A program made the position numbers and the translations under genes. The notes beneath the pieces were generated by a model. It was not told where the DNA came from and ran no database searches. It worked only from the letters and a program-made list of their open reading frames with translations. A stretch of DNA of 32,000 nucleotides from Candidatus Arthromitus sp. SFB-mouse-Japan (GTDB lineage Bacteria > Bacillota > Clostridia > Clostridiales > Clostridiaceae), in NCBI RefSeq assembly GCF_000270205.1, contig NC_015913.1, positions 90,001 to 122,000 of the forward strand, in the 5' to 3' direction. Below are positions 18,229 through 31,215 of the stretch, piece after piece. Positions within the stretch are counted from its first letter, which is position 1. Each line of letters begins with the position of its first letter.

Positions 18229-19650
18229 GTGAGGAAGACAAAAATAGTATGTACAATAGGTCCTGCTAGTGATAAATATGATATTTTAAGAGAATTGATT
18301 GAAAAGGGAATGAATGTCATGAGACTCAATTTTTCCCATGGTGATTTTGAAGAGCATGGTAATAGAATAAAATTAGTTAGGCAAATTAGTGAGGAATTAA
18401 ACAAAAATGTAGGTATAATGCTTGACACAAAAGGACCTGAAATTAGAACTAAGAAATTTGAGGGTAAGGTTTTATTAAATCAGGGAGATAAATTTGTTAT
18501 ATATACAAAGGAGGATATAGTTGGTGATTCAACCAGATGTTCTGTTACTTATGAAGATCTTTATAAAGATGTAGAAGTTGGAGGTAAAATACTTATAGAT
18601 GATGGTTTAGTAGCCCTTGAAATTGAAGATGTGGAAGATGGTAAAATAAGTTGTATTGTTTTAAATTCTGGTGAGATTTCAAGTAACAAGGGTGTTAATT
18701 TACCAAAGTCTAAGATAAAATTGCCTGCACTTACAGAAAAGGATAAGAATGATTTGTTATTTGGTATAAAGAATGATGTTGAATATGTTGCTGCTTCTTT
18801 TATAAGGAAATCTGATGATGTTATACAAATCAGGAAATTTCTTGATTTAAATGGAGGAGATTTTATAAAAATCATATCTAAGATAGAGAACCAGGAGGGA
18901 CTTGATAATATAGATGAAATCATAGATAGTTCTGATGGAATAATGGTTGCTAGAGGTGATTTGGGAGTTGAGATTCCTATTGAAAATTTGCCTCATTGGC
19001 AAAAGTTAATTATAAAGAAATGTAATGATAGAGGAAAATTTGTAATAACTGCAACCCAAATGCTTGACTCTATGATTAGGAATCCAAGACCCACGAGAGC
19101 TGAAGCTTCGGATGTAGCTAATGCTATACATGATGGTAGCGATGCAGTTATGTTGAGTGGAGAAACTGCAAATGGTAAATATCCATTAGAGGCGTATGAA
19201 ATAATGGATAAGATTATAGTTACAACTGAACAGAGTTTAGATTATGAAGGGAAACTTCAGAAGAAATTATCTAAAATAGAATATAAAGATGTACCTAATA
19301 CGATTGCATTATTTTCTTGTACTACAGCAAATGAAGTTGGTGCTAAGGCTATACTTGCTTGCACAAAGTCTGGTGCTACAGCGAAGTTTGTATCTAGATT
19401 TAGGCCGGAGTGTCCTATTATTTCTATAACTCAAATGAAAAAGGTTGCTAGAATGTTGTCTATTTATTGGGGCGTATATACTCAAACAATAAGTGAGACA
19501 ATTGATAATACAGATATGTTAATTGATTTATCGGTAGATAAGGCTAAAAAAGAGTATAACTTTAAAGATGGCGATTTAGTAGTTGTTTCGGCAAGTGTTC
19601 CCGCAAATTTTAAAGGTCATACAAATATGCTTAAGGTTCATGAAATTTAA
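18229..19650 (+). CDS. pyk: Pyruvate kinase
   Basis: MRKTKIVCTIGPAS.., MVARGDLGVEIP, TQMLDSM. GTG start after AAGGAG. The dnaE-pfkA-pyk order is typical of clostridia. Confidence 0.95.
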   Translation: MRKTKIVCTIGPASDKYDILRELIEKGMNVMRLNFSHGDFEEHGNRIKLVRQISEELNKNVGIMLDTKGPEIRTKKFEGKVLLNQGDKFVIYTKEDIVGDSTRCSVTYEDLYKDVEVGGKILIDDGLVALEIEDVEDGKISCIVLNSGEISSNKGVNLPKSKIKLPALTEKDKNDLLFGIKNDVEYVAASFIRKSDDVIQIRKFLDLNGGDFIKIISKIENQEGLDNIDEIIDSSDGIMVARGDLGVEIPIENLPHWQKLIIKKCNDRGKFVITATQMLDSMIRNPRPTRAEASDVANAIHDGSDAVMLSGETANGKYPLEAYEIMDKIIVTTEQSLDYEGKLQKKLSKIEYKDVPNTIALFSCTTANEVGAKAILACTKSGATAKFVSRFRPECPIISITQMKKVARMLSIYWGVYTQTISETIDNTDMLIDLSVDKAKKEYNFKDGDLVVVSASVPANFKGHTNMLKVHEI

Positions 19651-19773: not shown

Positions 19774-19807
19774 ACATTAGTATCTTTTGATACTAATGTT
19801 TTTTTTG
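19774..19807 (+). terminator. Rho-independent terminator after pyk
   Basis: ACATTAGTATC (19774-19784), loop TTTT, GATACTAATGT (19789-19799), then a T8 run. It overlaps the N-terminal extension of the next ORF in the ORF track, which argues against that extension. Confidence 0.7.
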
Positions 19808-19831
19808 ATTAAGGAGGAAAATTTTTTAAGT

Positions 19832-21217
19832 ATGGTGGATGTTGCTAATAAGTACATAGTAAAGATTGAGGATTATGATAGTAAGGGAAATGGAGTTTCA
19901 CATATAGACGATTTAGTTGTTTTTGTACCTAATACCATAGTTGGCGAAATTGTTGAGATATGTATAGAAAAGGTAAATAAGAATTTTTTAAGAGGTAGAG
20001 TTAATGAAGTGCTTTCAGTATCTGAATCAAGAGTATTGCCTATATGTGAGATATATGAAAAATGTGGTGGATGTAATATTCAGCACATGAATTATAAGGA
20101 GCAAATTAGATTTAAAGAAAGTAAAATAATAAATACATTAAATAAAATAGGTGATATACGGAATATTAAGATGGAAAAATTCTATGCGATGTCTATTCCA
20201 TATGAGTATAGGAATAAAGTTCAGGTACCATTTGGATTAAGTGATTCTGGTGTTAAAGCTGGATTTTATGAAAAAAATACTCATAATATTATCAATATGG
20301 ACTTCTGTCATATACAGTTTCACGAAGGTAATGATATTGTTAAGGAAACTAGAGAATATATAAAAAAAAATAATATAAAGCCTTATGATGAGAGTGCTAA
20401 TTATAAAAAAGGTTGTGATTATGGTCTTGTAAGACATTTGCTCATTAGAAAGGGATATAATACAAATGAAATCATGCTTGTAATTGTGTTAACTAGAGAT
20501 GACGAGGAATTTTTAAATGGGTATATGGATTTTATATTAGAAAAATTTAAGAATATAAAGACAATAATAGTTAACGTAAATAATGAAATAACAAATGTTA
20601 TTCTTGGAAAATACGAGAGGGTATTGTATGGTGATGGTTATATAAAAGACAAGATAAATGATTTTATATTTAGAATACATAGTAAATCATTTTTTCAGGT
20701 TAATACAAAACAATCTGAGAAGTTATATTCGGCTGCAATTGAAATGTGTGATTTAAAATTTGGAGATATTCTTCTAGATGCTTATTGTGGGATTGGTACC
20801 ATAGGTATATGTGCAAGTAGAAAAATAAAGCAGGTCTATGGTATAGAGGAAGTTAAAGAGAGCATAGTTGATGCTAATGAAAATAAGATTATAAATAATA
20901 TTAAAAATATAGAATTTATACATGGTAAGGTTGAAGATGAAATATTTAATTTAGTAAATAGCGGGGTTAATATAAATGCTGTTATTTTAGATCCTCCAAG
21001 AAAGGGTGTAAAGGAGAGGGTCTTACATAAAATAAGAGATATTAACTGTAGAAAAATAGTTTATATTTCATGTGATGTATCGACTCTCTCTAGAGATGCT
21101 AAGATATTAAATTCCCTTGGCTATAAGATTGATAAAATTAGAGGAGTTGATATGTTTTGTCAAACATATCATGTAGAAACTATTGTTAGATTTACTTTGC
21201 GACCATCTGGATTTTAA
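19832..21217 (+). CDS. 23S rRNA (uracil-5-)-methyltransferase, RlmD/RumA family
   Basis: TRAM-like N-terminus, Fe-S cysteine cluster CEIYEKCGGC, SAM motif LDAYCGIGTIG and catalytic-Cys region VYISCD. The ATG at 19832 is preferred because the TTG at 19787 lies inside the pyk terminator. The start remains uncertain because the SD spacing is long. Confidence 0.85.
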   Translation: MVDVANKYIVKIEDYDSKGNGVSHIDDLVVFVPNTIVGEIVEICIEKVNKNFLRGRVNEVLSVSESRVLPICEIYEKCGGCNIQHMNYKEQIRFKESKIINTLNKIGDIRNIKMEKFYAMSIPYEYRNKVQVPFGLSDSGVKAGFYEKNTHNIINMDFCHIQFHEGNDIVKETREYIKKNNIKPYDESANYKKGCDYGLVRHLLIRKGYNTNEIMLVIVLTRDDEEFLNGYMDFILEKFKNIKTIIVNVNNEITNVILGKYERVLYGDGYIKDKINDFIFRIHSKSFFQVNTKQSEKLYSAAIEMCDLKFGDILLDAYCGIGTIGICASRKIKQVYGIEEVKESIVDANENKIINNIKNIEFIHGKVEDEIFNLVNSGVNINAVILDPPRKGVKERVLHKIRDINCRKIVYISCDVSTLSRDAKILNSLGYKIDKIRGVDMFCQTYHVETIVRFTLRPSGF

Positions 21218-21255
21218 ATATTTGTGAATCAAATTTTATTAGTTTTGACTACCTT

Positions 21256-21284
21256 TTGCCTACATAAAATTAATATGTAGGCAA
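21256..21284. repeat. 11-bp perfect inverted repeat at the chromosome/prophage junction
   Basis: TTGCCTACATA (21256-21266) and TATGTAGGCAA (21274-21284) around a 7-nt loop. The repeat spans the integrase stop codon. Confidence 0.6.
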
Positions 21285-22460
21285 TATTATATTTTCAAAT
21301 ATATCTACTGATTGTTTAGCTAACTTATCTGTATTATGGGTATAAGTATTAAGTGTAGTTTGAATATTATTATGTCCTAGTCTATGTTGTACATCTTTAA
21401 TGTTAGCACCATTTTCAACTAGTAATGTAGCGTGGGTGTGTCTTAATGAGTGGAAATTAAAAGGTATACCTAATTCATAATTAATAACACGCGACGCGTA
21501 TTTAAATGAATCTGGTGTTAATAACATTCCGTTACTTTTTACGCACACCATATTTAATAAATGTTCTTTTAAATTTAGAGAACTTGTTGTGATTTTATCA
21601 TTTATGTTGTATTGTTTTATATAATGTTCTCCGTATTCTAAGCGTTTAATATCAATATATCTTTTATGATACTTTAGTGCGTTTTTCAAGGTATTACCTA
21701 TATTAATTATTCTGCTAGAGGAGGTGGTCTTAGGTTCACCAAAATACCAAGACGTATCCTTTTTATATATTAGTTTGTTAATATTGATTGTGTTATTATC
21801 TAAATCAATGTCATCCCACGTTAAACCCATTGCTTCACCTATGCGACAACCAGTATGATAACCAATCATTAAAGGGATATAGAAAGATGATCTTTCGGGA
21901 AAGCGTTTTATTATAGCGTTAAAATCATCATTAGTTATAATTTTATGTTTATCTGTAGTTTTGGTATTATTATACTTAGGAATTTTAACATATTGCATAG
22001 GGTTATTCTTTAGAAAATTCATAGGATGTACTGAGTAGTTAAGGGAACCACTCAATAAGGATATTATATTATTTAGATGATTTTTTGATATACCAGTTAA
22101 ATATTTGCTATTTATAAAATCTTGTAATTTACCAGGAGTTAAAGAAGTTAATTTTAAAATGCCTAAAGAGGGTTTAATATGTTTATCTATTATTAATCTA
22201 TAAGAGCGTTGAGTATTGTATCTGCAATTTAACAGTACATAAGCATCAAACCATAAATCCATATAATCTGATACTGATATATTTGTTTTTTGAAGTTGTT
22301 CACCATTTTCGTAATCTTCCAAAGCCTTTCTTAAAGCTGCTTCAGCTTCTTTTTTGGTTCTACCTCCAACTCTTTCAATCCTTTTTCTTTTTCCGTCGAC
22401 CCTAGCTGCCTCAAACGAGTAATACCACTTGTCTCCTCGTTTTCTAACACTTCCGGTCAT
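21270..22460 (-). CDS. int: Phage tyrosine integrase
   Basis: 396 aa. Catalytic region GCRIGEAMGLTWDDIDL, HSLRHTHATLL, LGH....T...YTH (R..HxxR..Y). SD GGAGATATAAAA precedes the ATG. Confidence 0.93.
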   Translation of the reverse strand: MTGSVRKRGDKWYYSFEAARVDGKRKRIERVGGRTKKEAEAALRKALEDYENGEQLQKTNISVSDYMDLWFDAYVLLNCRYNTQRSYRLIIDKHIKPSLGILKLTSLTPGKLQDFINSKYLTGISKNHLNNIISLLSGSLNYSVHPMNFLKNNPMQYVKIPKYNNTKTTDKHKIITNDDFNAIIKRFPERSSFYIPLMIGYHTGCRIGEAMGLTWDDIDLDNNTININKLIYKKDTSWYFGEPKTTSSSRIINIGNTLKNALKYHKRYIDIKRLEYGEHYIKQYNINDKITTSSLNLKEHLLNMVCVKSNGMLLTPDSFKYASRVINYELGIPFNFHSLRHTHATLLVENGANIKDVQHRLGHNNIQTTLNTYTHNTDKLAKQSVDIFENIILPTY

Positions 22461-22522
22461 TTTTATATCTCCTTTTTGATTTAATTTTACACGGGATTAT
22501 ATATAAAAGTAAATATAATAGT
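22458..22522. repeat. Integrase start plus upstream region, copy a of a ~65-bp repeat (copy b at 25466-25532)
   Basis: CAT..TTATATCTCC-TTTTTGATTTAATTTTACA..GGAATT/GGGATT..ATAAAAGTAAA.ATAATAGT is shared between the two copies, by eye. Confidence 0.75.
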
Positions 22523-22694
22523 AAATGTGATAGTTTATGCTGCGAATTAATCATAAATAGTTAATTGATGCTTTGTTTAATTTTATAATATTCTGAAAAG
22601 CATATCAATTCCTATTAAATTGTTATAAAATATAACCATAATAATTGAATATATTTAATACTAAAATATTATAATATTAAAGGGTGGTGATCTT

Positions 22695-23999
22695 ATGTTT
22701 ACTGGTATTAAGCTTAAGAATTTTAAATCACTAGTTGATTTTGAAGTTAAATTCCCTAGAAATAGAAAATTAGTTATAATTTATGGAGAAAATGGTGTTG
22801 GAAAATCTAATTTTATAGATGCCTTTAGTATTTTGAGAAAACTAGTTACTGGTAGACCCTTTGATGTAGATGATTTTTTGGAATTGGCAAATCTTAAATT
22901 CAATCACGGTCTTAGTAATATAGACATGGATGCTGAAGTTATTACAGATTTGTTTAAGACATCTAACCTTAAAAGGATTATTGAGTCATGTAAGACTATA
23001 AACTCAGAAGGCGAAAATATGGTATTATCATTTGACTTTACTTTAAGAGGAAAAAAAGGATCGTATATTATAGAAACTGATGATAATAGGCTAATATCTG
23101 AGAGATTAGAATATGTATATAATAAGCAAATTGTTGAATTCTTTAATGTTAATAATGATGAAATTTATTTAAACGAAAAAGTGATAAAAAATAAAGAATA
23201 TTACGAAGAACTGATAAATAATTGTGAAAAGTATTGGGGTAAAAATACTTTGACGTCTATGATATTTAAAGATATACAGTCAAAAAACGATAAGTATATG
23301 TCTAAATCTCTGACTAAGAATATGATAGAGATAATCGATTACTTTAGTAGTTTAAATATTAGTGTCAGTGGTCAAATCTTATTTCCTGGTTTACATTTAG
23401 GTGAAGGAATTACACAGATGTCAAATCAGGCAGAACTAGATAAGAATGAAAAAATTTTGGATGATATATTCACTCGTTTATATCCAGATATAAAACAGGT
23501 GTATTACAAAAAAGAGATAATTGATGATGGTAAAATAAATTATAAGTTGTACTTTAAAAAGCTTGTAGGTAATAAAATTTTAGATATAGATATTGAACGA
23601 GAGTCTAAAGGTACCAAACAAGTATTAAATATAACGAAACAAATTTTATATGGTTTAGATAAACAAGTGTTAATCATCGATGAATTTGATACAGGTATAC
23701 ATGATATATTAGCTAAATCTATGTTGCAGAGTTTATATGATAGTTTAGATATGCAAATAATTATTACTACGCATAATACATTACTCATAGAAGCTAAAGA
23801 CTTATGTAAAAACGCATATGTACTAACGCATAATATTGATGGAAGTAAGGATATGATAGCTATATCTGATTTTGAAAAAAGAATCCATAGTAATTTAAAT
23901 ATTAGAGATAGATATCTAAGAGGAATGTATGGAGGTGTGCCAATCCCGCTCGATATAGATTTTTCTGATTATAGTGATGCTAATTTGGAGGATTGTTAG
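22695..23999 (+). CDS. ABC/AAA_21-type ATPase (COG1106-like; AbiLi / AriA / OLD-ATPase-like), defence candidate
   Basis: Walker A GENGVGKSNF at residues ~31-40, signature-like ESKGTKQVL, Walker B/D-loop VLIIDEFDTGIH, H-loop ITTHN and a C-terminal RDRYLRGMYGGVP tail. SD GGTGGTGA precedes the ATG. Confidence 0.8.
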   Translation: MFTGIKLKNFKSLVDFEVKFPRNRKLVIIYGENGVGKSNFIDAFSILRKLVTGRPFDVDDFLELANLKFNHGLSNIDMDAEVITDLFKTSNLKRIIESCKTINSEGENMVLSFDFTLRGKKGSYIIETDDNRLISERLEYVYNKQIVEFFNVNNDEIYLNEKVIKNKEYYEELINNCEKYWGKNTLTSMIFKDIQSKNDKYMSKSLTKNMIEIIDYFSSLNISVSGQILFPGLHLGEGITQMSNQAELDKNEKILDDIFTRLYPDIKQVYYKKEIIDDGKINYKLYFKKLVGNKILDIDIERESKGTKQVLNITKQILYGLDKQVLIIDEFDTGIHDILAKSMLQSLYDSLDMQIIITTHNTLLIEAKDLCKNAYVLTHNIDGSKDMIAISDFEKRIHSNLNIRDRYLRGMYGGVPIPLDIDFSDYSDANLEDC

Positions 24000-24587
24000 A
24001 TGGGAGGTAAGAAAGCACAAATACAGTATTTACGCTGTATACTAATTTGTCATGGCAAATCAGAAAAAGAATTTATGGAGACTATAAAGCAAAATTTACG
24101 TTTAAAGATACACATAGAGTCAGATAAAAAAGGAAGTAAGTCTATTCAGATAAATAGTCTGAATAAGACTTTGAAAAATCACAAGTATGGTAAACGTGAT
24201 AATTTTTTAAGATATTTTGAGGATATAGAATTAATAAAAGGTAAAATAACATCTGAGTTTAAAATTTTTACGTTATTGGATACGGATGATAAAGAAAAAG
24301 AAATAAACTTGATAAAATATTTGAATAAAGAAATGTTTAAAGAGCATCATCTTTATGATCATATAGTACCTATTTATAATACTCCTAATTTAGAAAGTGT
24401 TTTTGAAGAAATTGGTCATGTATTTAAGAATAAAGGCGAGGCAAGAAAAAGAGAGTATAAAGATTTATTGAAACCATATCCAACCCCTAAACTTGCTCGG
24501 AATTATTTAAAAGATTTATCGGGAAAATTTGAAAAGAGCAAAAACACTAATCTTAATCATGTTATTAATTTTCTCCTTAATATATAA
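24000..24587 (+). CDS. Small Toprim-like partner protein (RloB / DUF4276 / AbiLii-like), defence candidate
   Basis: The ATG abuts the ATPase stop (TAGATG) and is preceded by GGAGG. The N-terminal ILICHGKSEKEF resembles the CEGxxTE strand-turn of RloB-type Toprim proteins. A later LLDTDD resembles the Toprim DxD motif. Family assignment is from memory of motifs, not from a search. Confidence 0.6.
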   Translation: MGGKKAQIQYLRCILICHGKSEKEFMETIKQNLRLKIHIESDKKGSKSIQINSLNKTLKNHKYGKRDNFLRYFEDIELIKGKITSEFKIFTLLDTDDKEKEINLIKYLNKEMFKEHHLYDHIVPIYNTPNLESVFEEIGHVFKNKGEARKREYKDLLKPYPTPKLARNYLKDLSGKFEKSKNTNLNHVINFLLNI

Positions 24588-24602
24588 CCCTTAAATAATT
24601 GC

Positions 24603-24768
24603 GAAATATAAGCTTACATTAAATTTATAAGTGCTTCGCGAAGCTATATTAATACTTGATTGTAGTAGAATACTTGGTATTGCTATTCATAGATGAATTA
24701 TGTAGAATATTAGTGTTCGCAAAAATAGTATGTCTATTTATGATTAGCAGCTGTTTTTAAATTTAACG
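24603..24768 (+). promoter_or_regulatory. CRISPR leader 1 (166 bp) with predicted sigma-70-type promoter
   Basis: Near-identical to 26605-26770 (about 3 substitutions by eye). -35 TTGCTA (24680-24685), 17-nt spacer, -10 TAGAAT (24703-24708). Contains the palindrome GCTTCGCGAAGC at 24633-24644. Confidence 0.6.
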
Positions 24769-24999
24769 GTCGCACCTCACGCAGGTGCGTGGATTGAAAT
24801 GAGGATAAAGGAGTTGGCAATTTACATAGTGCATCGTCGCACCTCACGCAGGTGCGTGGATTGAAATTACGTAGTTCTATAACTTTACCAATTATGTGTA
24901 GTCGCACCTCACGCAGGTGCGTGGATTGAAATATATCTAATATTTTAGCTAACTCTAACTGAGTCAGGTCGCACCTCACGTAGGTGCGTGGATTGAAGG
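24769..24999 (+). CRISPR. Mini-CRISPR array 1: four 32-bp repeats and three spacers (35/33/35 bp); type I-C-like repeat
   Basis: Repeats GTCGCACCTCACGCAGGTGCGTGGATTGAAAT at 24769-24800, 24836-24867, 24901-24932 and 24968-24999. The last repeat is degenerate (C14T, terminal AT>GG). Internal hairpin GCACCT/AGGTGC. The leader lies upstream and the degenerate repeat is distal, which gives + orientation. Confidence 0.93.
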
Positions 25000-25014
25000 T
25001 GCCAGACATATAAT

Positions 25015-25048
25015 AAAACCCCACTTGAAATTAATCAGGTGGGGTTTT
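25015..25048. terminator. Bidirectional hairpin between array 1 and the truncated repressor
   Basis: AAAACCCCAC (25015-25024) pairs with GTGGGGTTTT (25039-25048), with A/T runs on both sides. Confidence 0.6.
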
Positions 25049-25434
25049 AAAATCTCCGTCTAAGTTCTACGACCTTTCCGATTATGTGTATAGGTTTATC
25101 TGCAATGTCATTTTTATCGTAGTACATAGGCTCATATCTAGGATTTAACGACACAAGGCTTATACCGTCCTTGTGTTTTATTATTTTTTTACACGTTGCC
25201 TCGTCACCATTAACGCAGACTATAGCTATGTCTCCAGAGTTAACGTCTTGCTGTTTCCTGACTATTACGACATCTCCAGCATCCATTGTGGGAGACATCG
25301 AATCACCCTTGATTACGAGAGCAAAATACTCTCCTTGAGATGCAAGTTTAGGTGATATCTCTTCCCAACCGATAATTTCTTCAATCGCCGTTATGGGTAT
25401 ACCAGCTATAACAGTACCTAGTATGGGTATTTTA
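25047..25434 (-). pseudogene. 5'-truncated copy of the LexA-like repressor (S24 peptidase domain only)
   Basis: Homologous to 27113-27499. Encodes KIPILGTVIAGIPITAIEE..GDSMSPTMDAGD..HIIGKVVELRRRF but has no HTH domain. The reading frame has no start codon upstream of MSPTMD. Homology stops at ~25434. Confidence 0.8.
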
Positions 25435-25465
25435 ATAGCTTTATTGGATTGATCAGATCTGGAAT

Positions 25466-25532
25466 CATTTATTATATCTCCTTTTTTGATTTAATTTTAC
25501 AAGGAATTAGACATAAAAGTAAAGATAATAGT
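25466..25532. repeat. Copy b of the integrase-start/upstream repeat
   Basis: On the minus strand GGAGATATAATAAATGA matches the int SD plus ATGA (GGAGATATAAAAATGA), and similarity continues upstream. No integrase ORF follows: the ATG opens only a 16-codon frame. Confidence 0.75.
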
Positions 25533-25604
25533 TTTATCTGACAAATTAATGGGCAATATAAGTTTAGAAATTGTAGTATATTTGGGTATACCTTGTTATA
25601 ATTA

Positions 25605-26375
25605 TTGGTGAAGAAGGAGATAATATGGGGGTGTTTAAACATGGAAGAAAAAGAAAAGTTGCTTAAAAAATCTAAAGAAATTTTTAGCTTAGTTAGTTGT
25701 ATGTATTGTTATTATAGTGGTCCTTATAAAATTGAAACTGTTTGTATTTTATTATGTAATGCTTGGGAATTAATGTTGAAAGCTTATATAATCGGTAAGA
25801 AGGGGAAAGAAGGAATAGTATATAAAAATAAACAGAATAAGGGTAGGACTATTGGATTAAATGAATGTATAAGTAAAGTATTTACGAATAAGCATGATAT
25901 ATTACGTAAACATTTGGAGTCTGTAATTAGATATAGGAATTCGGTTGTACATTATACAGTTGATAGTTTTGACTTATCTTTATACTCTAAAATAGAGTAT
26001 TGTATAGTGAATTTTAAAGCGAAAATGTGTGAACTTCACAATGTTAATATGTCCGATATGATAGTTAACCAGGCTAATGAAGAAATCTTAAAAAATGATG
26101 TCGATTTGTATAAGTATAGTAAAAAGAGTTTGTGTAGGGAAATAAATAATGTATTGAAATCTTTGGGGATTGAGTTTAAAATCGATAGTCAATCCTTTGA
26201 ATTGTTTGATAGGGTGTACGGAATTAAAGAAAATAAAGAGTATTGTCTTATAAGTAATGTTAATAACAGGCCATCTTATAGATATTCATCAAGAGTTTTA
26301 AATTTTATCGTAGGATTGATACAAAAAAATCCTAACAATATTAAAGAAGTCTTAAAGAATAAAATAAAAAAATAA
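25605..26375 (+). CDS. HEPN-like (Rx4H motif; DUF3644-like) protein, abortive-infection/toxin candidate
   Basis: The motif NAWELMLKAYII, then ~55 residues, then IRYRNSVVHY (R-N-S-V-V-H = Rx4H) matches my recollection of DUF3644/HEPN proteins. The start is ambiguous: TTG 25605 in the ORF track or ATG 25641. Confidence 0.6.
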   Translation: MVKKEIIWGCLNMEEKEKLLKKSKEIFSLVSCMYCYYSGPYKIETVCILLCNAWELMLKAYIIGKKGKEGIVYKNKQNKGRTIGLNECISKVFTNKHDILRKHLESVIRYRNSVVHYTVDSFDLSLYSKIEYCIVNFKAKMCELHNVNMSDMIVNQANEEILKNDVDLYKYSKKSLCREINNVLKSLGIEFKIDSQSFELFDRVYGIKENKEYCLISNVNNRPSYRYSSRVLNFIVGLIQKNPNNIKEVLKNKIKK

Positions 26376-26604
26376 GCTAACCCCAGGGGCAAAGGAATTC
26401 TTGGTTTAATTTATTAAATTAAACCTACTCCTATTTAGGAACCCAGCCTTATCCATCCCAAGTTAGCTTACATTTATATAATATGTACATATCGTGTATA
26501 TTATTCATATACACTTACATTGTACAATAAATAATTTATAAAATCAATATTTTGTAGGTAAAAATCTGTTTAACTAGGCTTATTTAAGCTGGTTATTTTA
26601 CTCG

Positions 26605-26770
26605 GAAATATAAGCTTACATTAAATTTATAAGTGCTTCGCGAAGCTATATTAATACTTGATTGTAGTAGAATAATTGGTATTGCTATTCATAGATGAAT
26701 TATGTAGAATATTAGTGTTCGCAAAAATGGTGTGTCTATTTATGATTAGCAGCTGTTTTTAAATTTAACG
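26605..26770 (+). promoter_or_regulatory. CRISPR leader 2 (166 bp) with predicted promoter
   Basis: Duplicate of leader 1. -35 TTGCTA (26682-26687), 17-nt spacer, -10 TAGAAT (26705-26710). Palindrome GCTTCGCGAAGC at 26635-26646. Confidence 0.6.
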
Positions 26771-27067
26771 GTCGCACCTCACGCAGGTGCGTGGATTGAA
26801 ATTTATTTGTCCAAATTCTAAGTTGTCAAATATTTTGTCGCACCTCACGCAGGTGCGTGGATTGAAATTAGTAGGCTTGTCCTCCTTACTTTTAAACTCC
26901 CGTCGCACCTCATACAGGTGCGTGGATTGAAATTAAGATTTTTTATTGATGTGTACATAATCACCCCTGTCGCACCTCACGCAGGTGCGTGGATTGAAAT
27001 CTTTATAATGGATTTGCTTTATGAGTTATTTAGATGTCGCACCTCACGCAGGTGCGTGGATTGAAGG
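26771..27067 (+). CRISPR. Mini-CRISPR array 2: five 32-bp repeats and four spacers (34/33/35/35 bp); same repeat family
   Basis: Repeats at 26771-26802, 26837-26868, 26902-26933 (loop variant CATAC), 26969-27000 and 27036-27067 (terminal AT>GG, as in array 1). Confidence 0.93.
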
Positions 27068-27082
27068 TGTCATACATATAAT

Positions 27083-27114
27083 AAAAACCACTTGAAATTA
27101 ATCGAGTGGTTTTT
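27083..27114. terminator. Bidirectional hairpin between array 2 and the repressor gene
   Basis: AAAAACCACT (27083-27092) pairs with AGTGGTTTTT (27105-27114). Confidence 0.6.
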
Positions 27115-27826
27115 AAAATCTCCGTCTAAGTTCTACGACTTTACCAATTATGTGTATAGGTTTGCTTACAATGTCATTTTTATCATAGTACATAGGCTCA
27201 TATCTAGGATTTAACGACACAAGGCTTATACCGTCCTTGTGTTTTATTATTTTTTTACATGTTGCTTCATCACCATTAACGCAAACTATAGCTATGTCTC
27301 CAGAGTTAACGTCTTGCTGTTTCCTGACTATTACGACATCTCCAGCATCCATTGTGGGAGACATGGAGTCTCCTTTAATTTTTAACGCAAAGTACTCTCC
27401 TTGAGATGCAAGTTTAGGTGATATCTCTTCCCATCCGATAATCTCCTCAATCGCCGATATTGGGATACCCGCTATTACGGTGCCTAGTATGGGTATTTTT
27501 ACGCAGGCTTGTACGTTTAGACCAAGACCATTTTTATATGATATTACTTTAGTAGAACTGGTAACTTGTATAGGTTGCTGTGCATTGATAAATTCAATAT
27601 GATCTTGATCATTTAATAGTACGGATTCATCGATTCCTAATGCTTGGGCAATTATTTTAATTTTGGACTGAGGAATATCGTTGATACCAGTCTCTATCTT
27701 ATTTATTGTAGACCTAGCTTTATAACCGCACCTTTTTGCCAATTCATCTTGCGACAATCCACGCATTAGTCTAATACGTTTGATTTTGTCGCCTAGTTTC
27801 TTTTTTTCAATATTATTAGTATCCAT
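27113..27826 (-). CDS. Phage repressor, LexA/CI-like (Xre HTH + S24 peptidase)
   Basis: The N-terminal HTH (LSQDELAKRCGYKARSTINKIETG) is followed by an S24 domain with the GDSM Ser and a downstream Lys (CKKI). It is divergent from a cro-like gene. Confidence 0.92.
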   Translation of the reverse strand: MDTNNIEKKKLGDKIKRIRLMRGLSQDELAKRCGYKARSTINKIETGINDIPQSKIKIIAQALGIDESVLLNDQDHIEFINAQQPIQVTSSTKVISYKNGLGLNVQACVKIPILGTVIAGIPISAIEEIIGWEEISPKLASQGEYFALKIKGDSMSPTMDAGDVVIVRKQQDVNSGDIAIVCVNGDEATCKKIIKHKDGISLVSLNPRYEPMYYDKNDIVSKPIHIIGKVVELRRRF

Positions 27827-27832
27827 GTATAA

Positions 27833-27862
27833 ATTATAGTAAGCAATATGTCAATCAGTCAA
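27833..27862 (-). promoter_or_regulatory. Predicted repressor promoter giving a leaderless or near-leaderless mRNA
   Basis: On the minus strand: TTGACT (27862-27857), 18-nt spacer, TATAAT (27838-27833). The repressor ATG begins 7 nt after the -10 element and there is no SD between them. Confidence 0.45.
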
Positions 27863-27890
27863 TAAAAACAGCCTTTTTAATAAAAAAATG

Positions 27891-27919
27891 TTGACTTTAC
27901 ATAAACAAGGTGGTAAAGT
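27891..27919 (+). promoter_or_regulatory. Predicted rightward early promoter for the cro-like gene
   Basis: TTGACT (27891-27896), 17-nt spacer, TAAAGT (27914-27919). The SD GGAGGTGA precedes the ATG at 27966. Confidence 0.45.
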
Positions 27920-27965
27920 GTGATTGTAGATTAATAATAAACATAATGGACATGGAGGTGAGCAA

Positions 27966-28169
27966 ATGGATAATATAAGGCTAGTGGATTGTATACACAA
28001 ATCAGGATTAAAACACAAATACATTGCAGGTCAACTGTCATTAAGTAAGCAGGGGTGGAGTAATAAAATCAACAACAGGACAGAGTTTAGGCTGTCAGAA
28101 ATTAAAAGATTATGCACATTACTTAACCTTGATAGTAAGCAGAGAGATCATATTTTTTTTGAGGATTAA
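27966..28169 (+). CDS. Cro-like small HTH protein
   Basis: 67 aa, divergent from the repressor. HTH-like segment (HKYIAGQLSLSKQGWSNKINN) and a strong SD. Confidence 0.7.
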   Translation: MDNIRLVDCIHKSGLKHKYIAGQLSLSKQGWSNKINNRTEFRLSEIKRLCTLLNLDSKQRDHIFFED

Positions 28170-28185
28170 GTAGATTTAAAATATA

Positions 28186-28258
28186 CAAAGTAATGATAAA
28201 TAACGATAAGTTACGCTAAGTTACAACTAGTTAAATAATAACGTAAAAATAGATTGAA
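28186..28258. repeat. Intergenic linker cassette, copy 1 (others at 28807-28866 and 30091-30144)
   Basis: TTACGCTAAGTTACAACTAGTTAAATAATAACGTAAAAATAGATTG resembles TTACGCTACGTTACAACTAAGTAAATAATAACATAAAAAGGAGATTG in copy 2. In copy 1 the SD is decayed (ATAGATT versus AGGAGATT) and no gene follows. Confidence 0.7.
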
Positions 28259-28287
28259 AAAAGAAAAAGGCAAGCCAATAACTAAGC

Positions 28288-28503
28288 TTACCTTCTCGTT
28301 GGGTCATCTGATCTACCGACCAAATAATCAATAGATATATTGTAATAATCAGCTAATTTAATCAACGTATCATATTTAGGTTTAGATTTCCCATATTCGA
28401 GATTTTGATATGATCTATCGTTGATTTTAAGATAATTGGCTATATCTAATTGTGTTAGATTATTAGATAATCTTAGGGTTTTTAGTCTATCTTTAAAATC
28501 CAT
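28288..28503 (-). CDS. Xre-family HTH protein (71 aa), leftward member of divergent pair 2
   Basis: MDFKDRLKTLRLSNNLTQLDIANYL..SIDYLVGRSDDPTRR. The GTG start at 28545 in the ORF track overlaps the + strand -35 box, so the ATG at 28503 is preferred. Paralogue of 29554-29772. Confidence 0.8.
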   Translation of the reverse strand: MDFKDRLKTLRLSNNLTQLDIANYLKINDRSYQNLEYGKSKPKYDTLIKLADYYNISIDYLVGRSDDPTRR

Positions 28504-28538
28504 AAAAACATACCTTATTAAAAAATAAATAAAAATAG

Positions 28539-28567
28539 TTGACACGAACTAAACCTCGTGATATAGT
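28539..28567 (+). promoter_or_regulatory. Promoter for the 63-aa HTH gene
   Basis: TTGACA (28539-28544), 17-nt spacer, TATAGT (28562-28567). The inverted repeat ACCTCGT/ACGAGGT (28553-28559 / 28579-28585) brackets the -10 element. Confidence 0.6.
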
Positions 28568-28614
28568 GTATCTTGTAGACGAGGTAAACACCGTATCAAT
28601 TTTAAAGGAGGCGT

Positions 28615-28806
28615 ATGAATAATTTAAAAAAAATTCGAAATAAAGCTGGTCTAACCCAGATGTATTTATCTAGTCTGATAAATATAAACGTGCGTAGCTA
28701 CCAGAGTATAGAGCTCGGTAAAAGTTTACCGAGAGTAGATAGAGCATTAGCAATAGCAAAGATATTAAATACAACTGTGGAAGAACTATTTGGTAAAGAT
28801 AAGTAA
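28615..28806 (+). CDS. Xre-family HTH protein (63 aa), rightward member of pair 2
   Basis: MNNLKKIRNKAGLTQMYLS..AKILNTTVEELFGKDK. SD AAAGGAGG. Paralogue of 29890-30090. Confidence 0.8.
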   Translation: MNNLKKIRNKAGLTQMYLSSLININVRSYQSIELGKSLPRVDRALAIAKILNTTVEELFGKDK

Positions 28807-28866
28807 TGCTAAATTACGCTACGTTACAACTAAGTAAATAATAACATAAAAAGGAGATTGAGACAA
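28807..28866. repeat. Intergenic linker cassette, copy 2
   Basis: Shares ..ATAATAACATAAAAAGGAGATTGAGACAA followed by ATGGCAAATGA with copy 3. The first five codons (MANDI) are shared by the two downstream genes. Confidence 0.7.
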
Positions 28867-28938
28867 ATGGCAAATGACATAAAAGTATTTGAGCATGATG
28901 AATTTGGACAAATAAGAACAGTTTTAATTAATGAATGA
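28867..28938 (+). pseudogene. Detached N-terminal fragment of the antirepressor Bro-N domain (frameshifted)
   Basis: A good SD is followed by ATG and MANDIKVFEHDEFGQIRTVLINE*. The tandem AATGAATG at 28930-28937 shifts the frame. Removing one AATG fuses this fragment in frame to the 28931 ORF (..IRTVLINDQTWFVGKDVARALGY). Confidence 0.65.
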
Positions 28939-29551
28939 CCAAACATGGTTTGTTGGAAAAGATGTAGCTAGGGCTTTAGGATATGCAAATGGAAGCAGAG
29001 ATATAAATAGACATGTTGAGATCGAGGATAAAGTTTTGAGAAAATTACCACAATACCAAAACGGTAGTTTGGTATCAAACACAGTATTAATCAACGAATC
29101 AGGATTGTACAGTTTAATTTTATCAAGCAAATTGCCTAAAGCTAAGAAATTTAAAAGATGGGTGACTAGTGATGTATTACCATCAATACGGAATACAGGG
29201 GCTTATATAGCATCTAACAGACTTGATGAGTTAGATGATAGGGTTAAAAAATTAGAATCTAAAACAGTAATTGGCAAAGCCCAAAAGCCGATTGTGGGGG
29301 TTAACACATCAGAAATAGCATTTAGTTTAGGGATATCGCCTAAAGCTTTATTTGAATTTTTGAGATCGACTGGAGTCGCTAATCGTAAATGGGATAAATA
29401 CGAGTTGCACGATGATTATGTTGGATTTGGTTATATCCAGAATGCAAGAGTAGCTTATGAGAGATGCTACGAAAAAAGAATTAAATTTTGGACGCTTAAA
29501 GGCGTTTGGTTTGTAATGGATTTATATAATAAAAGGCAAGCCAATAACTAA
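28931..29551 (+). CDS. Phage antirepressor (Bro-N + KilAC/ANT domains), 5' part split off by a frameshift
   Basis: WFVGKDVARALGY..INESGLYSLILSSKLPKAKKFKRWVTSDVLPSIR is a Bro-N domain. The C-terminal half is KilAC-like (IAFSLGISPKALFEFLRSTGV..). There is no SD before the ATG at 28931. Confidence 0.75.
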   Translation: MNDQTWFVGKDVARALGYANGSRDINRHVEIEDKVLRKLPQYQNGSLVSNTVLINESGLYSLILSSKLPKAKKFKRWVTSDVLPSIRNTGAYIASNRLDELDDRVKKLESKTVIGKAQKPIVGVNTSEIAFSLGISPKALFEFLRSTGVANRKWDKYELHDDYVGFGYIQNARVAYERCYEKRIKFWTLKGVWFVMDLYNKRQANN

Positions 29552-29553
29552 GC

Positions 29554-29772
29554 TTACCTTCTAGTTGGATTAGTAGTCTCGCCGACTAAATAATCAATAG
29601 ATACATCGAAAAACCTTGCCAAAGCTATTAGTATATCAAAAGTAGGTTTGCGAGCATTCAACTCATAATTTTGTATACCTCTTTCGCTTATCCCTATAGC
29701 TTTAGCTAAATCTTTTTGGGTTATATTATTTTTAAGCCTTAAACCTTTTAAATGATTACCAAAATCAAACAT
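29554..29772 (-). CDS. Xre-family HTH protein (72 aa), leftward member of pair 3
   Basis: MFDFGNHLKGLRLKNNITQKDLAKAIG..SIDYLVGETTNPTRR. The longer ORF in the track (to 29820) runs into the + strand promoter. Confidence 0.8.
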   Translation of the reverse strand: MFDFGNHLKGLRLKNNITQKDLAKAIGISERGIQNYELNARKPTFDILIALARFFDVSIDYLVGETTNPTRR

Positions 29773-29807
29773 TTTACACATCTCGCTAAAAATTTTATTA
29801 AAAATAG

Positions 29808-29836
29808 TTGACACGAACAATTGTTCATGTTAATAT
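29808..29836 (+). promoter_or_regulatory. Promoter for the 66-aa HTH gene, with an embedded palindrome
   Basis: TTGACA (29808-29813), 17-nt spacer, TAATAT (29831-29836). The perfect palindrome GAACAATTGTTC (29815-29826) lies in the spacer. Confidence 0.6.
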
Positions 29837-29889
29837 ATATTTGTAACACGAACAAACGAGTATCAAGTAAGTTGAGAAAGGAGAAAAAA

Positions 29890-30090
29890 TTGCATAATAA
29901 TTTAAAGCCAATCCGTGATAAATTGGGTCTTACCCAAAATCAGGTATCAGATATAGCGGAGATAACTTTGAGAAGCTACCAAAACTATGAATACAGTAAA
30001 CGGATACCTAAAGTAAACATCGCATTAGATATAGCAAAAGCTCTTAACACAACGGTGGAAGAACTATTTAGTAATGATAAATTACAATAA
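29890..30090 (+). CDS. Xre-family HTH protein (66 aa), rightward member of pair 3
   Basis: The TTG start lies 6 nt after AAGGAG. (M)HNNLKPIRDKLGLTQNQVS..AKALNTTVEELFSNDKLQ aligns with the 63-aa paralogue. The start at 29821 in the ORF track lies inside the promoter. Confidence 0.75.
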   Translation: MHNNLKPIRDKLGLTQNQVSDIAEITLRSYQNYEYSKRIPKVNIALDIAKALNTTVEELFSNDKLQ

Positions 30091-30144
30091 ATTACGTTAA
30101 GTAATGATAAGTAACATAATAACACAAAAAGGAGATTAGGACAA
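30091..30144. repeat. Intergenic linker cassette, copy 3
   Basis: AAATTACGTTAAGTAATGATAAGTAACATAATAACACAAAAAGGAGATTAGGACAA precedes ATGGCAAATGAT. Confidence 0.7.
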
Positions 30145-30363
30145 ATGGCAAATGATATTTTATACACTGTACCCGAGGTATCAAAATTGATTAAAACCAA
30201 TCCATCTTATGTTTACACATTAATAAGATTAGGATTACTACCAGCGCTAAAACTTGGGAGTTTAAAAGTAAGGAGGACAAGCCTATTAGATTTTTTAGAG
30301 AGATTTGAAGGCAAGGATTTAACAGATTTGGAACATATAAGAGATTTAGAAACAGGAGTGTAA
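30145..30363 (+). CDS. Excisionase/MerR-type HTH DNA-binding protein (Xis-like)
   Basis: 72 aa. YTVPEVSKLIKTNPSYVYTLIRLGLLPALKLGS.KVRRTSLLDFLE is typical of excisionase-family HTH_17 domains. Confidence 0.65.
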   Translation: MANDILYTVPEVSKLIKTNPSYVYTLIRLGLLPALKLGSLKVRRTSLLDFLERFEGKDLTDLEHIRDLETGV

Positions 30364-30367
30364 AAGT

Positions 30368-30547
30368 ATGATAAGAAAACAAATTGAATCTTTAATTGGA
30401 CAAGTTGATGATAGGACTTATGCCGAGGCTCTGAAAATGACCGAGGCAGATATTAAAGCTAACAGGTTAAGCTTTAATCTGAAAACACAAATAGAAGACT
30501 TTATTTTAATCCTTATTAACTCTATTAAGATAATAAGGAGAAAATAA
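30368..30547 (+). CDS. Hypothetical small protein (59 aa, below the ORF-track cutoff)
   Basis: ATG at 30368 lies 4 nt after the upstream stop, preceded by AGGAG. MIRKQIESLIGQVDDRTYAEALKMTEADIKANRLSFNLKTQIEDFILILINSIKIIRRK*. Confidence 0.35.
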   Translation: MIRKQIESLIGQVDDRTYAEALKMTEADIKANRLSFNLKTQIEDFILILINSIKIIRRK

Positions 30548-30632
30548 AATCTCCAAAAATAAAAAACCAATATGATTGTACCAAATATTTAATAATAAGA
30601 AAAGTTTTTTAACAAATAAAAATGTATGAGGT

Positions 30633-30899
30633 ATGGATCCGTTAACTGATGAGTTGGTAATAGCTTATAGTGTACAACCAAACGATACAGAGGTAAAAAT
30701 AGTCAAACTAAAACTAGAAGAATGGGACAAGGATGAATTAAAAGATATACTTGCGGGGGATTTTGTAACCTTTGAGACGTTAGAGGTAGTCACACCAGAG
30801 GAACTATCAGATGTAGTATCTGATTGGATAAGCTTTAATGATGATCTGACAGATGATGAGTTTATAGATTCTTGTGTAAAAAATATAACTAAACAGTAA
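30633..30899 (+). CDS. Hypothetical acidic phage protein
   Basis: 88-aa ORF, strongly acidic, co-oriented with the early operon. No motif recognised. Confidence 0.55.
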   Translation: MDPLTDELVIAYSVQPNDTEVKIVKLKLEEWDKDELKDILAGDFVTFETLEVVTPEELSDVVSDWISFNDDLTDDEFIDSCVKNITKQ

Positions 30900-30915
30900 T
30901 GGAGGACTGAAATTT

Positions 30916-31215
30916 ATGATATTAACTTTTAAGCTAGATTCTAATGATACTAACGGGATTAAAAAATTAATAACTTTATGTGAAAATTTACTAAGTTTTG
31001 AAGAAACAGCTACCCCGGAACTTGAATTTGTTAGGGAAGAACCTAAAACAGATATTAAAATTGATGACTTGAGGAATGCATTAATAAAGTTAGCAAAGGA
31101 TAAAGGGAAAGAAACTGCCAAAGAATTACTAAATGAATTTAAGGTTGAAAAACTTACAGATGTAAATACATCTGACTATGATAGATTATTACAGCGTATA
31201 CGTGAGGTGCAATAA
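30916..31215 (+). CDS. Hypothetical phage protein
   Basis: 99-aa ORF preceded by GGAGGA. Its stop overlaps the next start (TAATG). Confidence 0.55.
   Translation: MILTFKLDSNDTNGIKKLITLCENLLSFEETATPELEFVREEPKTDIKIDDLRNALIKLAKDKGKETAKELLNEFKVEKLTDVNTSDYDRLLQRIREVQ

Follow-up and report, generated by a model that had tools for sequence, protein, structure and literature searches.

How does a temperate phage come to hold two defense cargos, two CRISPR arrays, and a second, headless repressor gene between its integrase gene (int) and its repressor gene? This question is raised by a prophage in the chromosome of Candidatus Arthromitus sp. SFB-mouse-Japan, a segmented filamentous bacterium (SFB), which lies in the 32,000-nt stretch analyzed here (NC_015913.1, positions 90,001 to 122,000; hereafter the window, whose own numbering is used throughout). 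Our data show that the int-to-repressor locus consists of two consecutive units of like architecture, that natural single-unit phages match each half separately, and that the two halves meet in a 13-nt microhomology. Taking the account as a whole, we consider it very probable that the two units were brought together by fusion of two sibling phages and that the arrays and cargos have the defensive functions suggested by their sequences.

Two tandem units of like architecture

An earlier note on this DNA, made from its letters alone, had described the locus as two tandem, differently loaded versions of one accessory region, and a self-BLAST of the whole window together with a comparison of its repeat families recovered all of the repeated elements. 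Unit 1 (22457-25477) runs from the int-upstream sequence through genes for an AbiL-like ATPase and its putatively Toprim-like partner, a 166-nt leader, a three-spacer array, and a terminator hairpin to a truncated repressor gene. Unit 2 (25465-27826) runs from a copy of the int-upstream sequence through a gene for a HEPN-restriction endonuclease (REase) protein (PDC-S19), a leader, a four-spacer array, and a hairpin to a full repressor gene. The parts of the locus, including the Shine-Dalgarno sequence (SD) of int and the helix-turn-helix (HTH) domain of the repressor, are as follows.

21270-22460, minus strand: tyrosine integrase (int), 396 aa (Pfam Phage_integrase 9e-27, Phage_int_SAM_3, Arm-DNA-bind_4); left end of the prophage
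22457-22522: U, the start codon and SD of int with the sequence upstream of them; left limit of unit 1 (89.7% identity to 25465-25532)
22695-23999, plus strand: cargo 1a, AbiLi-like ABC/AAA_21 ATPase, 434 aa (Pfam AAA_21 9e-17)
24000-24587, plus strand: cargo 1b, putative Toprim-like partner, 195 aa (invariant motifs and weak fold matches)
24603-24768, plus strand: leader 1, 166 nt (98% identical to leader 2)
24769-24999, plus strand: CRISPR array 1, 4 repeats and 3 spacers (24801-24835, 24868-24900, 24933-24967)
25016-25051: bidirectional terminator hairpin 1, between array 1 and the repressor remnant (-22.8 kcal/mol, z -6.9)
25047-25477, minus strand: truncated type II repressor, about residues 63-204, comprising the linker end and the whole S24 domain (Pfam Peptidase_S24 1e-29)
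25465-25477: recombination junction, the 13-nt microhomology TCATTTATTATAT (TCATTT[A]TTATAT) common to the type II repressor and the int start region
25465-25532: U', the copy of U without an int open reading frame (ORF); left boundary of unit 2
25641-26375, plus strand: cargo 2, HEPN (DUF3644) plus REase (EC042_2821), 244 aa (Pfam 5e-29 and 3.5e-15; PADLOC PDC-S19 5.6e-54)
26376-26604: 229-nt noncoding segment from cargo 2 to leader 2 (97-99.6% identity in all PDC-S19 units; absent in unit 1)
26605-26770, plus strand: leader 2 (98% identical to leader 1)
26771-27067, plus strand: CRISPR array 2, 5 repeats and 4 spacers (26803-26836, 26869-26901, 26934-26968, 27001-27035)
27083-27118: terminator hairpin 2 (-17.1 kcal/mol, z -7.0)
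27113-27826, minus strand: full type I repressor, 237 aa (HTH_3 3e-14, Peptidase_S24 7e-29; VIAG/IP, GDSM, and CKK visible)

The boundary sequences U and U' align at 89.7% identity over 68 columns (E = 4e-17), and U' is 98% identical to the true int-upstream sequence of the single-unit phages L030 and L032 (relatives are cited by L-numbers throughout). U' was thus rightly read as an int-less copy of the sequence upstream of int; its ATGA cannot be called retained, since it lies inside the microhomology and is common to both parents. The promoter-like sites of leader 1 (24680-24708 and 24716-24744) are also kept in leader 2, and the two hairpins differ by compensatory CC/GG to AA/TT changes, as expected for working bidirectional terminators. 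The 229-nt segment of unit 2 opens with a further terminator-like hairpin at 26383-26404.

Both parental forms occur in nature and meet in a microhomology

We collected about 40 SFB loci by exact-protein look-ups in finished genomes, AFX* drafts, metagenome-assembled genomes (MAGs), and metagenomes. In every SFB locus fetched, int lies next to the host RumA-like methyltransferase gene, which places the left end of the prophage there, and at this one attachment site the int-to-repressor locus takes four forms.

Form A, two units: int, AbiL pair, array, S24 remnant, U', PDC-S19, array, repressor (window, AP012209.1, AFXS, AFXW, AFXU, AFXR)
Form B, two units with another cargo: unit 1 holds ORFs of 163, 199, and 311 aa and a leaderless one-spacer array remnant (CP008713.1, L058, L060, L043, L044, L001)
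Form C, single unit: int, U', PDC-S19, leader, array, full repressor (L054, L056, L057, L061; L030 and L032 cover its start only)
Form D, collapsed: a deletion begins inside the type-B cargo and reaches into the 3' end of PDC-S19 (L059)

A history in which two sibling phages were joined from the interior of one repressor to the start of the other int, as the earlier note had envisaged, can be compared with relatives that carry only one unit, and such prophages exist (L064, L054, L056, L057, and L061). The form predicted for parent A is observed in L064 (GCA_949747785.1), a single unit in which int and U are followed by the same AbiL-like pair, a leader, an array, and a hairpin and then by an untruncated type II repressor of 204 aa. 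Window positions 22393-25477 are colinear with this locus at 95.8%, with the homology ending at 25477; up to that base, the truncated repressor also aligns colinearly with the full-length ones of L054 and L064. The forms predicted for parent B are observed in L054, L056, L057, and L061, where int is followed at once by U' and PDC-S19 and then by a leader, an array, and a full repressor; in L030 and L032, the bases just upstream of int show 98% identity to window positions 25465-25660. In the alignments, homology to the type II repressor gene therefore ends at 25477 and homology to the true int-upstream sequence begins at 25465, and the overlap, a 13-nt microhomology, spans repressor codons ~62 to 66 and the SD-ATG of int. 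Since the parents have both been sampled, the crossover lies in a microhomology, and the truncated side has a linker from another immunity type, the joining of two siblings holds up well.

At least 22 loci, drawn from about 20 independent assemblies, carry this same junction; among them are the finished chromosomes AP012209.1 and CP008713.1, four AFX* drafts, MAGs, and many metagenome contigs, whose flanks have diverged by up to 12%. The junction is therefore neither a misassembly nor private to the window strain. The fusion event is old and widespread in SFB prophages and not specific to the window genome. Nor do relatives uniformly carry both units with an intact gene across the junction: single-unit relatives exist, and no intact spanning gene was found among the loci.

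Three distinct cargo sets occupy the int-to-repressor locus among the SFB loci, and Pfam and PADLOC searches with the alternative cargo proteins (163, 199, 311, and 168 aa) gave nothing significant. The 168-aa product belongs to an extra ORF that, in type III-repressor phages, lies between array 2 and the repressor and replaces the hairpin of the window (L053 7855-8361; L033 4639-5145; L059 7837-8343). In L059 (6452-7256), the deletion from inside the type-B cargo to the PDC-S19 3' end has returned a two-unit locus to one array. A megablast search of 21200-28200 against GenBank phages returned a sole match, a 37-nt chance one to Staphylococcus phages, and CRISPR-like arrays were not found beside distant repressor relatives in viral contigs (L002 to L011, 33-57% identity); among the phages sampled, the unit architecture seems confined to those of SFB.

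The window itself has a GC content of ~28% and a GC skew that is strongly positive until ~21 kb. The protein encoded by its pyruvate kinase gene (18229-19650) is identical in AP012209.1 and CP008713.1, both 1.6-Mb SFB chromosomes, the latter from SFB-mouse-NL. The RumA-like gene that the prophage adjoins (19787-21217) is unbroken (461-476 aa) in the window and other strains and is split into ORFs of 180/181 and 259 aa in AP012209.1 (L033 11244-12630) and AFXU (L037).

The truncated repressor is the scar of another immunity type

The repressors at the right end of these loci share a common S24 domain and carry unrelated N-terminal DNA-binding domains, which define three immunity types.

Type I: 237 aa (window, CP008713.1)
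Type II: 204 aa, MPNIGN... (L054, L064)
Type III: 204 aa, MYERFKK... (L053, L056, L059, L060; AP012209.1 has a 204-aa repressor in the same context)

The full repressor of the window, 94% identical to that of L001 and of the same 237-aa type as that of L055, has the HTH domain, AG cleavage site, and Ser/Lys motifs of a CI/LexA-type S24 repressor, whereas the truncated copy in unit 1 has the S24 domain only, with no HTH and no start codon. This copy had first been taken to end at 25434; it is indeed truncated, but it runs on to 25477, since the 31 bases at 25434-25464 are type II repressor coding sequence and read ...IINDSRSDQSNKAIKIPILG..., exactly as in L054. Its linker (IINDSRSDQSNKAI) is thus of type II, and the adjacent full repressor is of type I, a pairing that excludes a simple intragenomic duplication.

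Where the two copies align (25047-25433 and 27113-27499), they differ at 35 nt and 5 aa over 129 codons, with a ratio of nonsynonymous to synonymous changes (dN/dS) of 0.07; over the last 83 codons, for which about a dozen nucleotide changes and 2 amino acid changes had been noticed, we count exactly 12 and 2. The earlier note took this pattern to mean that the copies had diverged as functional genes in two phages before being joined. The separate, heteroimmune phages are borne out, but the low dN/dS can serve as a prefusion signal only in part, because later gene conversion from functional repressor genes also contributes to it. The remnants of different strains differ by up to 67 nt with a dN/dS of ~0.1, and each resembles a different full-length allele, a pattern best accounted for by recurrent exchange with functional repressor genes rather than by selection for the remnant. 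The best explanation of the remnant is a dead scar that would still offer homology for recombination.

Translation of the remnant meets several obstacles. Upstream of the catalytic serine the frame lacks ATG, GTG, and TTG codons, and the first methionine comes after that serine (GDS/M), so the resulting 83-aa ORF would be inactive. Initiation from the int SD/ATG at the junction was considered and rejected, since this lies in another frame and opens an ORF of 16 codons. In L053 (AFXW01000069.1), the only AbiL-type two-unit relative whose remnant was translated, the frame is closed by a stop (ASQG*YF). In CP008713.1 (L055 6183-6836), a 217-aa "LexA family protein" is annotated over the junction, and this was likewise rejected as a genuine product: it extends the same open frame upstream and overlaps the beginning of cargo 2, and no plausible start was identified, so it is probably an annotation artifact.

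The arrays are cas-less and of probable I-C type, and their spacers match sibling phages

Both arrays are built from the 32-nt repeat GTCGCACCTCACGCAGGTGCGTGGATTGAAAT and terminate in a degenerate ..GAAGG repeat. By sequence and fold, the repeat, which has a 7-bp hairpin and a 3' tail, fits the I-C family form (GTCGC..stem-loop..ATTGAAAT); the spacers are unique and 33 to 35 nt long, and each array opens after an AT-rich leader and closes with a degenerate terminal repeat, the organization expected of an I-C array. The 30-nt core of the repeat is identical to that beside a complete Cas3-Cas5d-Csd1-Cas7-Cas4-Cas1-Cas2 operon in a Paenibacillus MAG (L022), and this operon is the type I-C set. 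No cas genes were found among the prophage ORFs at 21270-32000, which makes both arrays orphans. An Rfam scan of the whole window gave nothing above threshold, CRISPR-DR families included, and a search of metagenome contigs for the leader-repeat junction gave no matches, though the sequence is exact in the JGI-derived L057, as that collection is without these samples.

The main text of Kuwahara et al. 2011 (PMC3158464) describes an intact SFB prophage, SFBMP01, with two cas-less arrays of 3 and 4 spacer-repeat units, which share their 32-bp repeat and ~160-bp leader with the cas-linked chromosomal CRISPR3. The window matches that description in its 3 + 4 spacers, 32-nt repeat, and 166-nt leader, and its arrays are almost certainly the CRISPR1 and CRISPR2 of SFBMP01 as described there. 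AP012209.1 has 6 + 4 spacers (7 + 5 repeats), so the window fits the strain of that paper's main text better.

To the relatives' arrays we add two side observations. Type-B relatives (L001 12828-12900; L055 6104-6133; L058, L060, and L043) keep one repeat tail, one spacer, and the terminal repeat, leaderless, downstream of the unrelated 163+199+311-aa cargo, either a decayed array or an element resembling a solitary repeat. In L045, a 4.7-kb metagenome contig, both arrays (2149-2380 and 4215-4446) carry the same four spacers, by gene conversion or assembly collapse.

Targets were sought by blastn-short in the fetched sequences for 56 distinct spacers from SFB prophage arrays. The protospacers lie in sibling SFB prophages, chiefly in repressor and early HTH genes, and 17 of the 23 spacer/protospacer-allele pairs with at most two mismatches carry a 5'-TTC flank, against a TTC background of 1.3% (nominal P = 7e-28, the alleles not being fully independent). 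TTC is the canonical protospacer adjacent motif (PAM) of type I-C systems. On the window side, spacer 1.2 (the second of array 1) is a perfect match to the 3' end of the L054 type II repressor, with a TTC PAM, and spacer 2.4 (the fourth of array 2) matches AP012209-type phages with one mismatch, also with a TTC PAM. The window phage is in turn matched by spacers of its siblings and, imperfectly, by one of its own.

27596-27630, plus strand: protospacer in the repressor gene of the window phage; spacer of L054 (type II single-unit phage), perfect, TTC PAM
28399-28433, plus strand: protospacer in the 85-aa HTH gene; spacer of L060, perfect, TTC PAM
29573-29607, minus strand: protospacer in the 88-aa HTH gene; spacer of L043 and L047, perfect, TTC PAM
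30256-30288, minus strand: near-self-match to spacer 2.2 (26869-26901) inside the HTH_17 gene; 32/33 bases, mismatch at spacer position 3, 5' flank ATC

By these matches, the window phage and the type II phage L054 are predicted to target each other. Spacer 2.2 matches the HTH_17 gene in all phages, and all of the siblings, at least 18, share the position-3 mismatch and the ATC flank as an "escape" allele; a perfect target for this spacer was not found in the sequences fetched, and the seed mismatch and ATC flank would be expected to block interference at these sites. Among near-identical prophages, the arrays have their trailer-end spacers in common and vary at the leader end, the signature of polarized acquisition; the array of L059, for instance, equals array 2 of L053 plus one extra leader-proximal spacer, and the last spacer of window array 1 is also found in L056, L057, and L061.

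The small HTH genes, which are the most frequent targets of sibling spacers, form a second tandem duplication in the window (28265-28880 and 29531-30158, 67% identity). Each copy is a divergent pair (85 aa on the minus and 63 aa on the plus strand; 88 aa on the minus and 89 aa on the plus strand), and a Bro-N/ANT antirepressor gene (28931-29551) sits between them. Sibling phages have one, two, or rearranged copies of the pair, and in some of them the HTH_17 gene is duplicated too.

The protein cargos resemble known defense families

That the prophage stacks two defense cargos as well as two arrays is consistent with what each cargo gene encodes, both cargos and both arrays having been found. 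The ATPase of cargo 1 (AAA_21) scores 1.3e-40 against the PADLOC AbiLi model, over profile positions 49-290 of 326, and more weakly (2e-18) against AriA. Its 195-aa partner has no Pfam or PADLOC match even at E values up to 10, the AbiLii, AriB, and DUF4435 models all being silent. HGKSE and DTDD motifs are invariant in 13 homologues of this partner, and the top Protein Data Bank folds for its AlphaFold2 model (pLDDT 89) are the C-terminal Toprim regions of OLD proteins, at weak similarity (E = 0.009, TM = 0.36). Of the "ATPase plus Toprim-like" cargo first proposed, the ATPase is therefore firm and the Toprim-like nature of the partner plausible but not proven, from motifs and a modeled fold. 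The pair resembles the ABC ATPase-Toprim nuclease pairs of the AbiL, PARIS, and OLD type in that an AAA_21 ATPase precedes a small protein bearing E and DxD motifs like those of Toprim; it differs from them in that cargo 1b falls outside the AbiLii, AriB, and DUF4435 models and has weak Toprim-fold similarity. It thus has the ATPase of an AbiL system without a recognizable AbiLii partner, and with AriA at only 2e-18 and no AriB/DUF4435 match it does not qualify as PARIS.

Cargo 2, for which a HEPN-like protein had been predicted, has both domains of the EC042_2821 HEPN-REase family, matches PDC-S19 at 6e-54, and carries an RNSVVH (Rx4H) motif; DUF3644 is a HEPN domain (Anantharaman 2013, PMC3710099). 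Cargo 2 shares with this family the DUF3644 HEPN domain, the C-terminal REase domain, and the Rx4H motif, but it is phage-borne and outside a restriction-modification context, and PDC-S19 is a candidate defense gene only.

Origin of the locus and alternative explanations

The int-to-repressor locus is a variable accessory one, and its basic unit comprises an int-upstream sequence, a defense cargo, a leader, a cas-less I-C mini-array, a bidirectional terminator, and a CI/LexA-type repressor. We conclude that a single illegitimate recombination joined two heteroimmune siblings, phage A with the AbiL-like cargo and a type II repressor and phage B with the HEPN-REase cargo, by a crossover in the 13-nt microhomology between codons ~62 to 66 of repressor A and the SD/ATG of int B. 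The DNA-binding domain of repressor A, all lytic genes of A, and int B were lost; int of A, both cargos, both arrays, and the immunity and lytic genes of B were kept, at a cost of only ~3 kb. Whether a tandem double lysogen collapsed or two replicating phage genomes underwent unequal crossover cannot be told apart. In the fused phage, each leader would drive its own array, the chromosomal type I-C Cas proteins of the host would process the array transcripts, the resulting CRISPR RNAs (crRNAs) would destroy incoming siblings of other immunity types, and the two protein cargos would add defense of an abortive-infection or nuclease type, while the repressor remnant would be left as a dead scar providing homology for recombination with other phages.

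Several observations weigh against parts of this account. The exact repeat, searched for in the genome contigs of species representatives, was found only in unrelated taxa with I-C arrays, with zero SFB matches. The host cas locus and the leader it shares with the prophage arrays are taken from the main text of PMC3158464, and the I-C subtype is suggested by repeat and PAM. Likewise, crRNA production and sibling exclusion by the host Cas proteins are predicted from sequence alone in a bacterium that is essentially unculturable, and the functions of cargos 1 and 2 are putative assignments by hidden Markov model or fold similarity. Spacers 1.1, 1.3, 2.1, and 2.3 have no good target in the sequences fetched. 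The junction, finally, comes in haplotypes, TCATTTATTATA versus TCATTTTTATA, that are linked to two U' alleles: A/6T/AG is the majority, -/5T/AA is found in L001, L055, and L058, and the intermediate A/6T/AA is found in L045 and L052. Both U' alleles also adjoin int in single-unit phages. Fusion may have recurred at the microhomology; we favor one fusion followed by mutation or gene conversion as likely but not proven.

Other origins for the two-unit locus have to be set against this fusion of siblings. A region so rich in repeats (leaders, CRISPR repeats, and S24 copies) could in principle have been assembled in silico from units of two prophages or strains joined at leader, repeat, or S24 sequences, and the short metagenome contig L045, with the same spacers in both arrays, could be such a collapse. 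We regard an artifact as practically out of the question, since the same junction, with flanks diverged by up to 12%, recurs in two finished chromosomes, four AFX* drafts, MAGs, and many metagenome contigs, and lies in unique sequence and not in a long repeat. An intragenomic tandem duplication in one phage, followed by cargo replacement and decay of one repressor, would leave just the direct repeats that are seen (U/U', leaders, and S24 domains). It is scarcely credible next to a remnant linker of type II whose neighboring repressor is of type I in the window and type III in AP012209.1, to S24 copies that differ at 35/390 nt with a dN/dS of 0.07, unlike the decay of a pseudogene, and to natural single-unit phages that match each half separately. 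Alternatively, the two-unit form could be ancestral, and single-unit prophages could be later deletions between U and U' that need no parents: these are 66-bp direct repeats of 90% identity able to mediate such a deletion, and L059 is clearly a collapsed two-unit locus. However, a truncated repressor can be derived only from a full one, L064 and L054 hold the full type II gene in colinear context, and a U x U' deletion could yield loci of the L056 type but not L064, so that we consider this order of events unlikely.

Two further alternatives concern what the parts do. The S24 remnant might be a functional gene retained by selection, encoding a UmuD-like protein or a domain acting as a dominant negative against the type II repressors of competitors; it has an open frame of 142 codons in the window, shows low dN/dS against every comparator (0.04-0.16), and is present in all two-unit phages. 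Yet it has no start codon before the catalytic serine, the 16-codon ORF opened by the int SD/ATG at the junction is in another frame, L053 has an in-frame stop, and exchange explains the low dN/dS, with the remnants resembling different full-length alleles; a functional remnant is therefore very unlikely. The arrays, being cas-less, phage-borne, and built from host-identical repeats, might instead be decoys (RNA anti-CRISPRs, akin to solitary repeat units) that shield the phage from the host I-C system, and type-B relatives do keep only a leaderless one-spacer remnant. This is quite unlikely for the window, where both arrays, in contrast to an RNA anti-CRISPR or a solitary repeat, have full leaders and several unique spacers of canonical length with PAM-flanked sibling protospacers, and where array content turns over at the leader end. 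A fusion of two sibling phages, each bringing its own cargo and array, remains the account that we prefer.

Relation to known systems and significance

Part of this picture is already known, in that the two cas-less prophage arrays were published in 2011 and phage mosaicism, defense hotspots, and cas-less phage arrays are established. The likeness to CRISPR1 and CRISPR2 of SFBMP01 extends to the two cas-less arrays with 3 + 4 units, the 32-bp repeat, and the ~160-bp leader, whereas the main text of Kuwahara et al. 2011 (PMC3158464) describes no spacer matches, tandem units, truncated repressor, junction, or defense cargos. New details appear to be the scar of the fusion, both of whose parents are sampled, the identification of the cargos, and the targets of the spacers with their reciprocal aim at immunity regions. 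The locus is a well-resolved example of ordinary phage mosaicism and not a new mechanism.

Prophages of Clostridioides difficile reportedly carry cas-less arrays that use the repeat and Cas proteins of the host and hold spacers against phages of the same host. The SFB arrays resemble them in being cas-less, of host repeat type, and directed at same-host phages; those of C. difficile are of subtype I-B, whereas the SFB arrays are I-C-like, lie between int and repressor together with protein defense genes, and were, by our account, duplicated by phage-phage fusion. Virus-borne mini-arrays, mostly of one or two spacers and in archaeal viruses, are said to mediate superinfection exclusion between related viruses. 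They share with the SFB arrays their shortness, the lack of cas genes, and the aim at close relatives of the carrier, but the SFB arrays have leaders, 3 to 10 spacers, signs of ongoing acquisition, and targets in immunity regions. The P2/P4 defense hotspots of temperate phages and their satellites are reported to hold interchangeable antiphage cargos at a fixed site. The SFB locus likewise has a fixed position between conserved phage genes and swappable, putatively antiphage cargos; it differs in that each cassette has its own CRISPR array and that two cassettes became stacked through illegitimate recombination, with half of a repressor gene remaining between them.

SFB are key immune-shaping gut symbionts that can barely be cultured, so their phage biology is known only from sequence. 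Against this background, the locus is an unusually clean record of a temperate phage gaining extra defense, with parents, product, crossover point, and decay products all sampled in nature. For spacers that the main text of the 2011 genome paper left unmatched, targets can now be given: the prophage arrays appear to be aimed, reciprocally, at heteroimmune siblings. We raise only tentatively the wider possibility that SFB prophages fight one another by means of the host I-C Cas proteins, aiming at each other's immunity regions, and that the locus is a recombination-driven stacking platform with spacer acquisition in situ. If so, the conserved boundaries (the int-upstream sequence, the leader, and the terminator with the S24 domain) would allow repeated swapping, stacking, and collapse of cassettes, the microhomology between repressor and int may be a site of recurrent stacking, and adaptive immunity would be carried and spread by the phages themselves.

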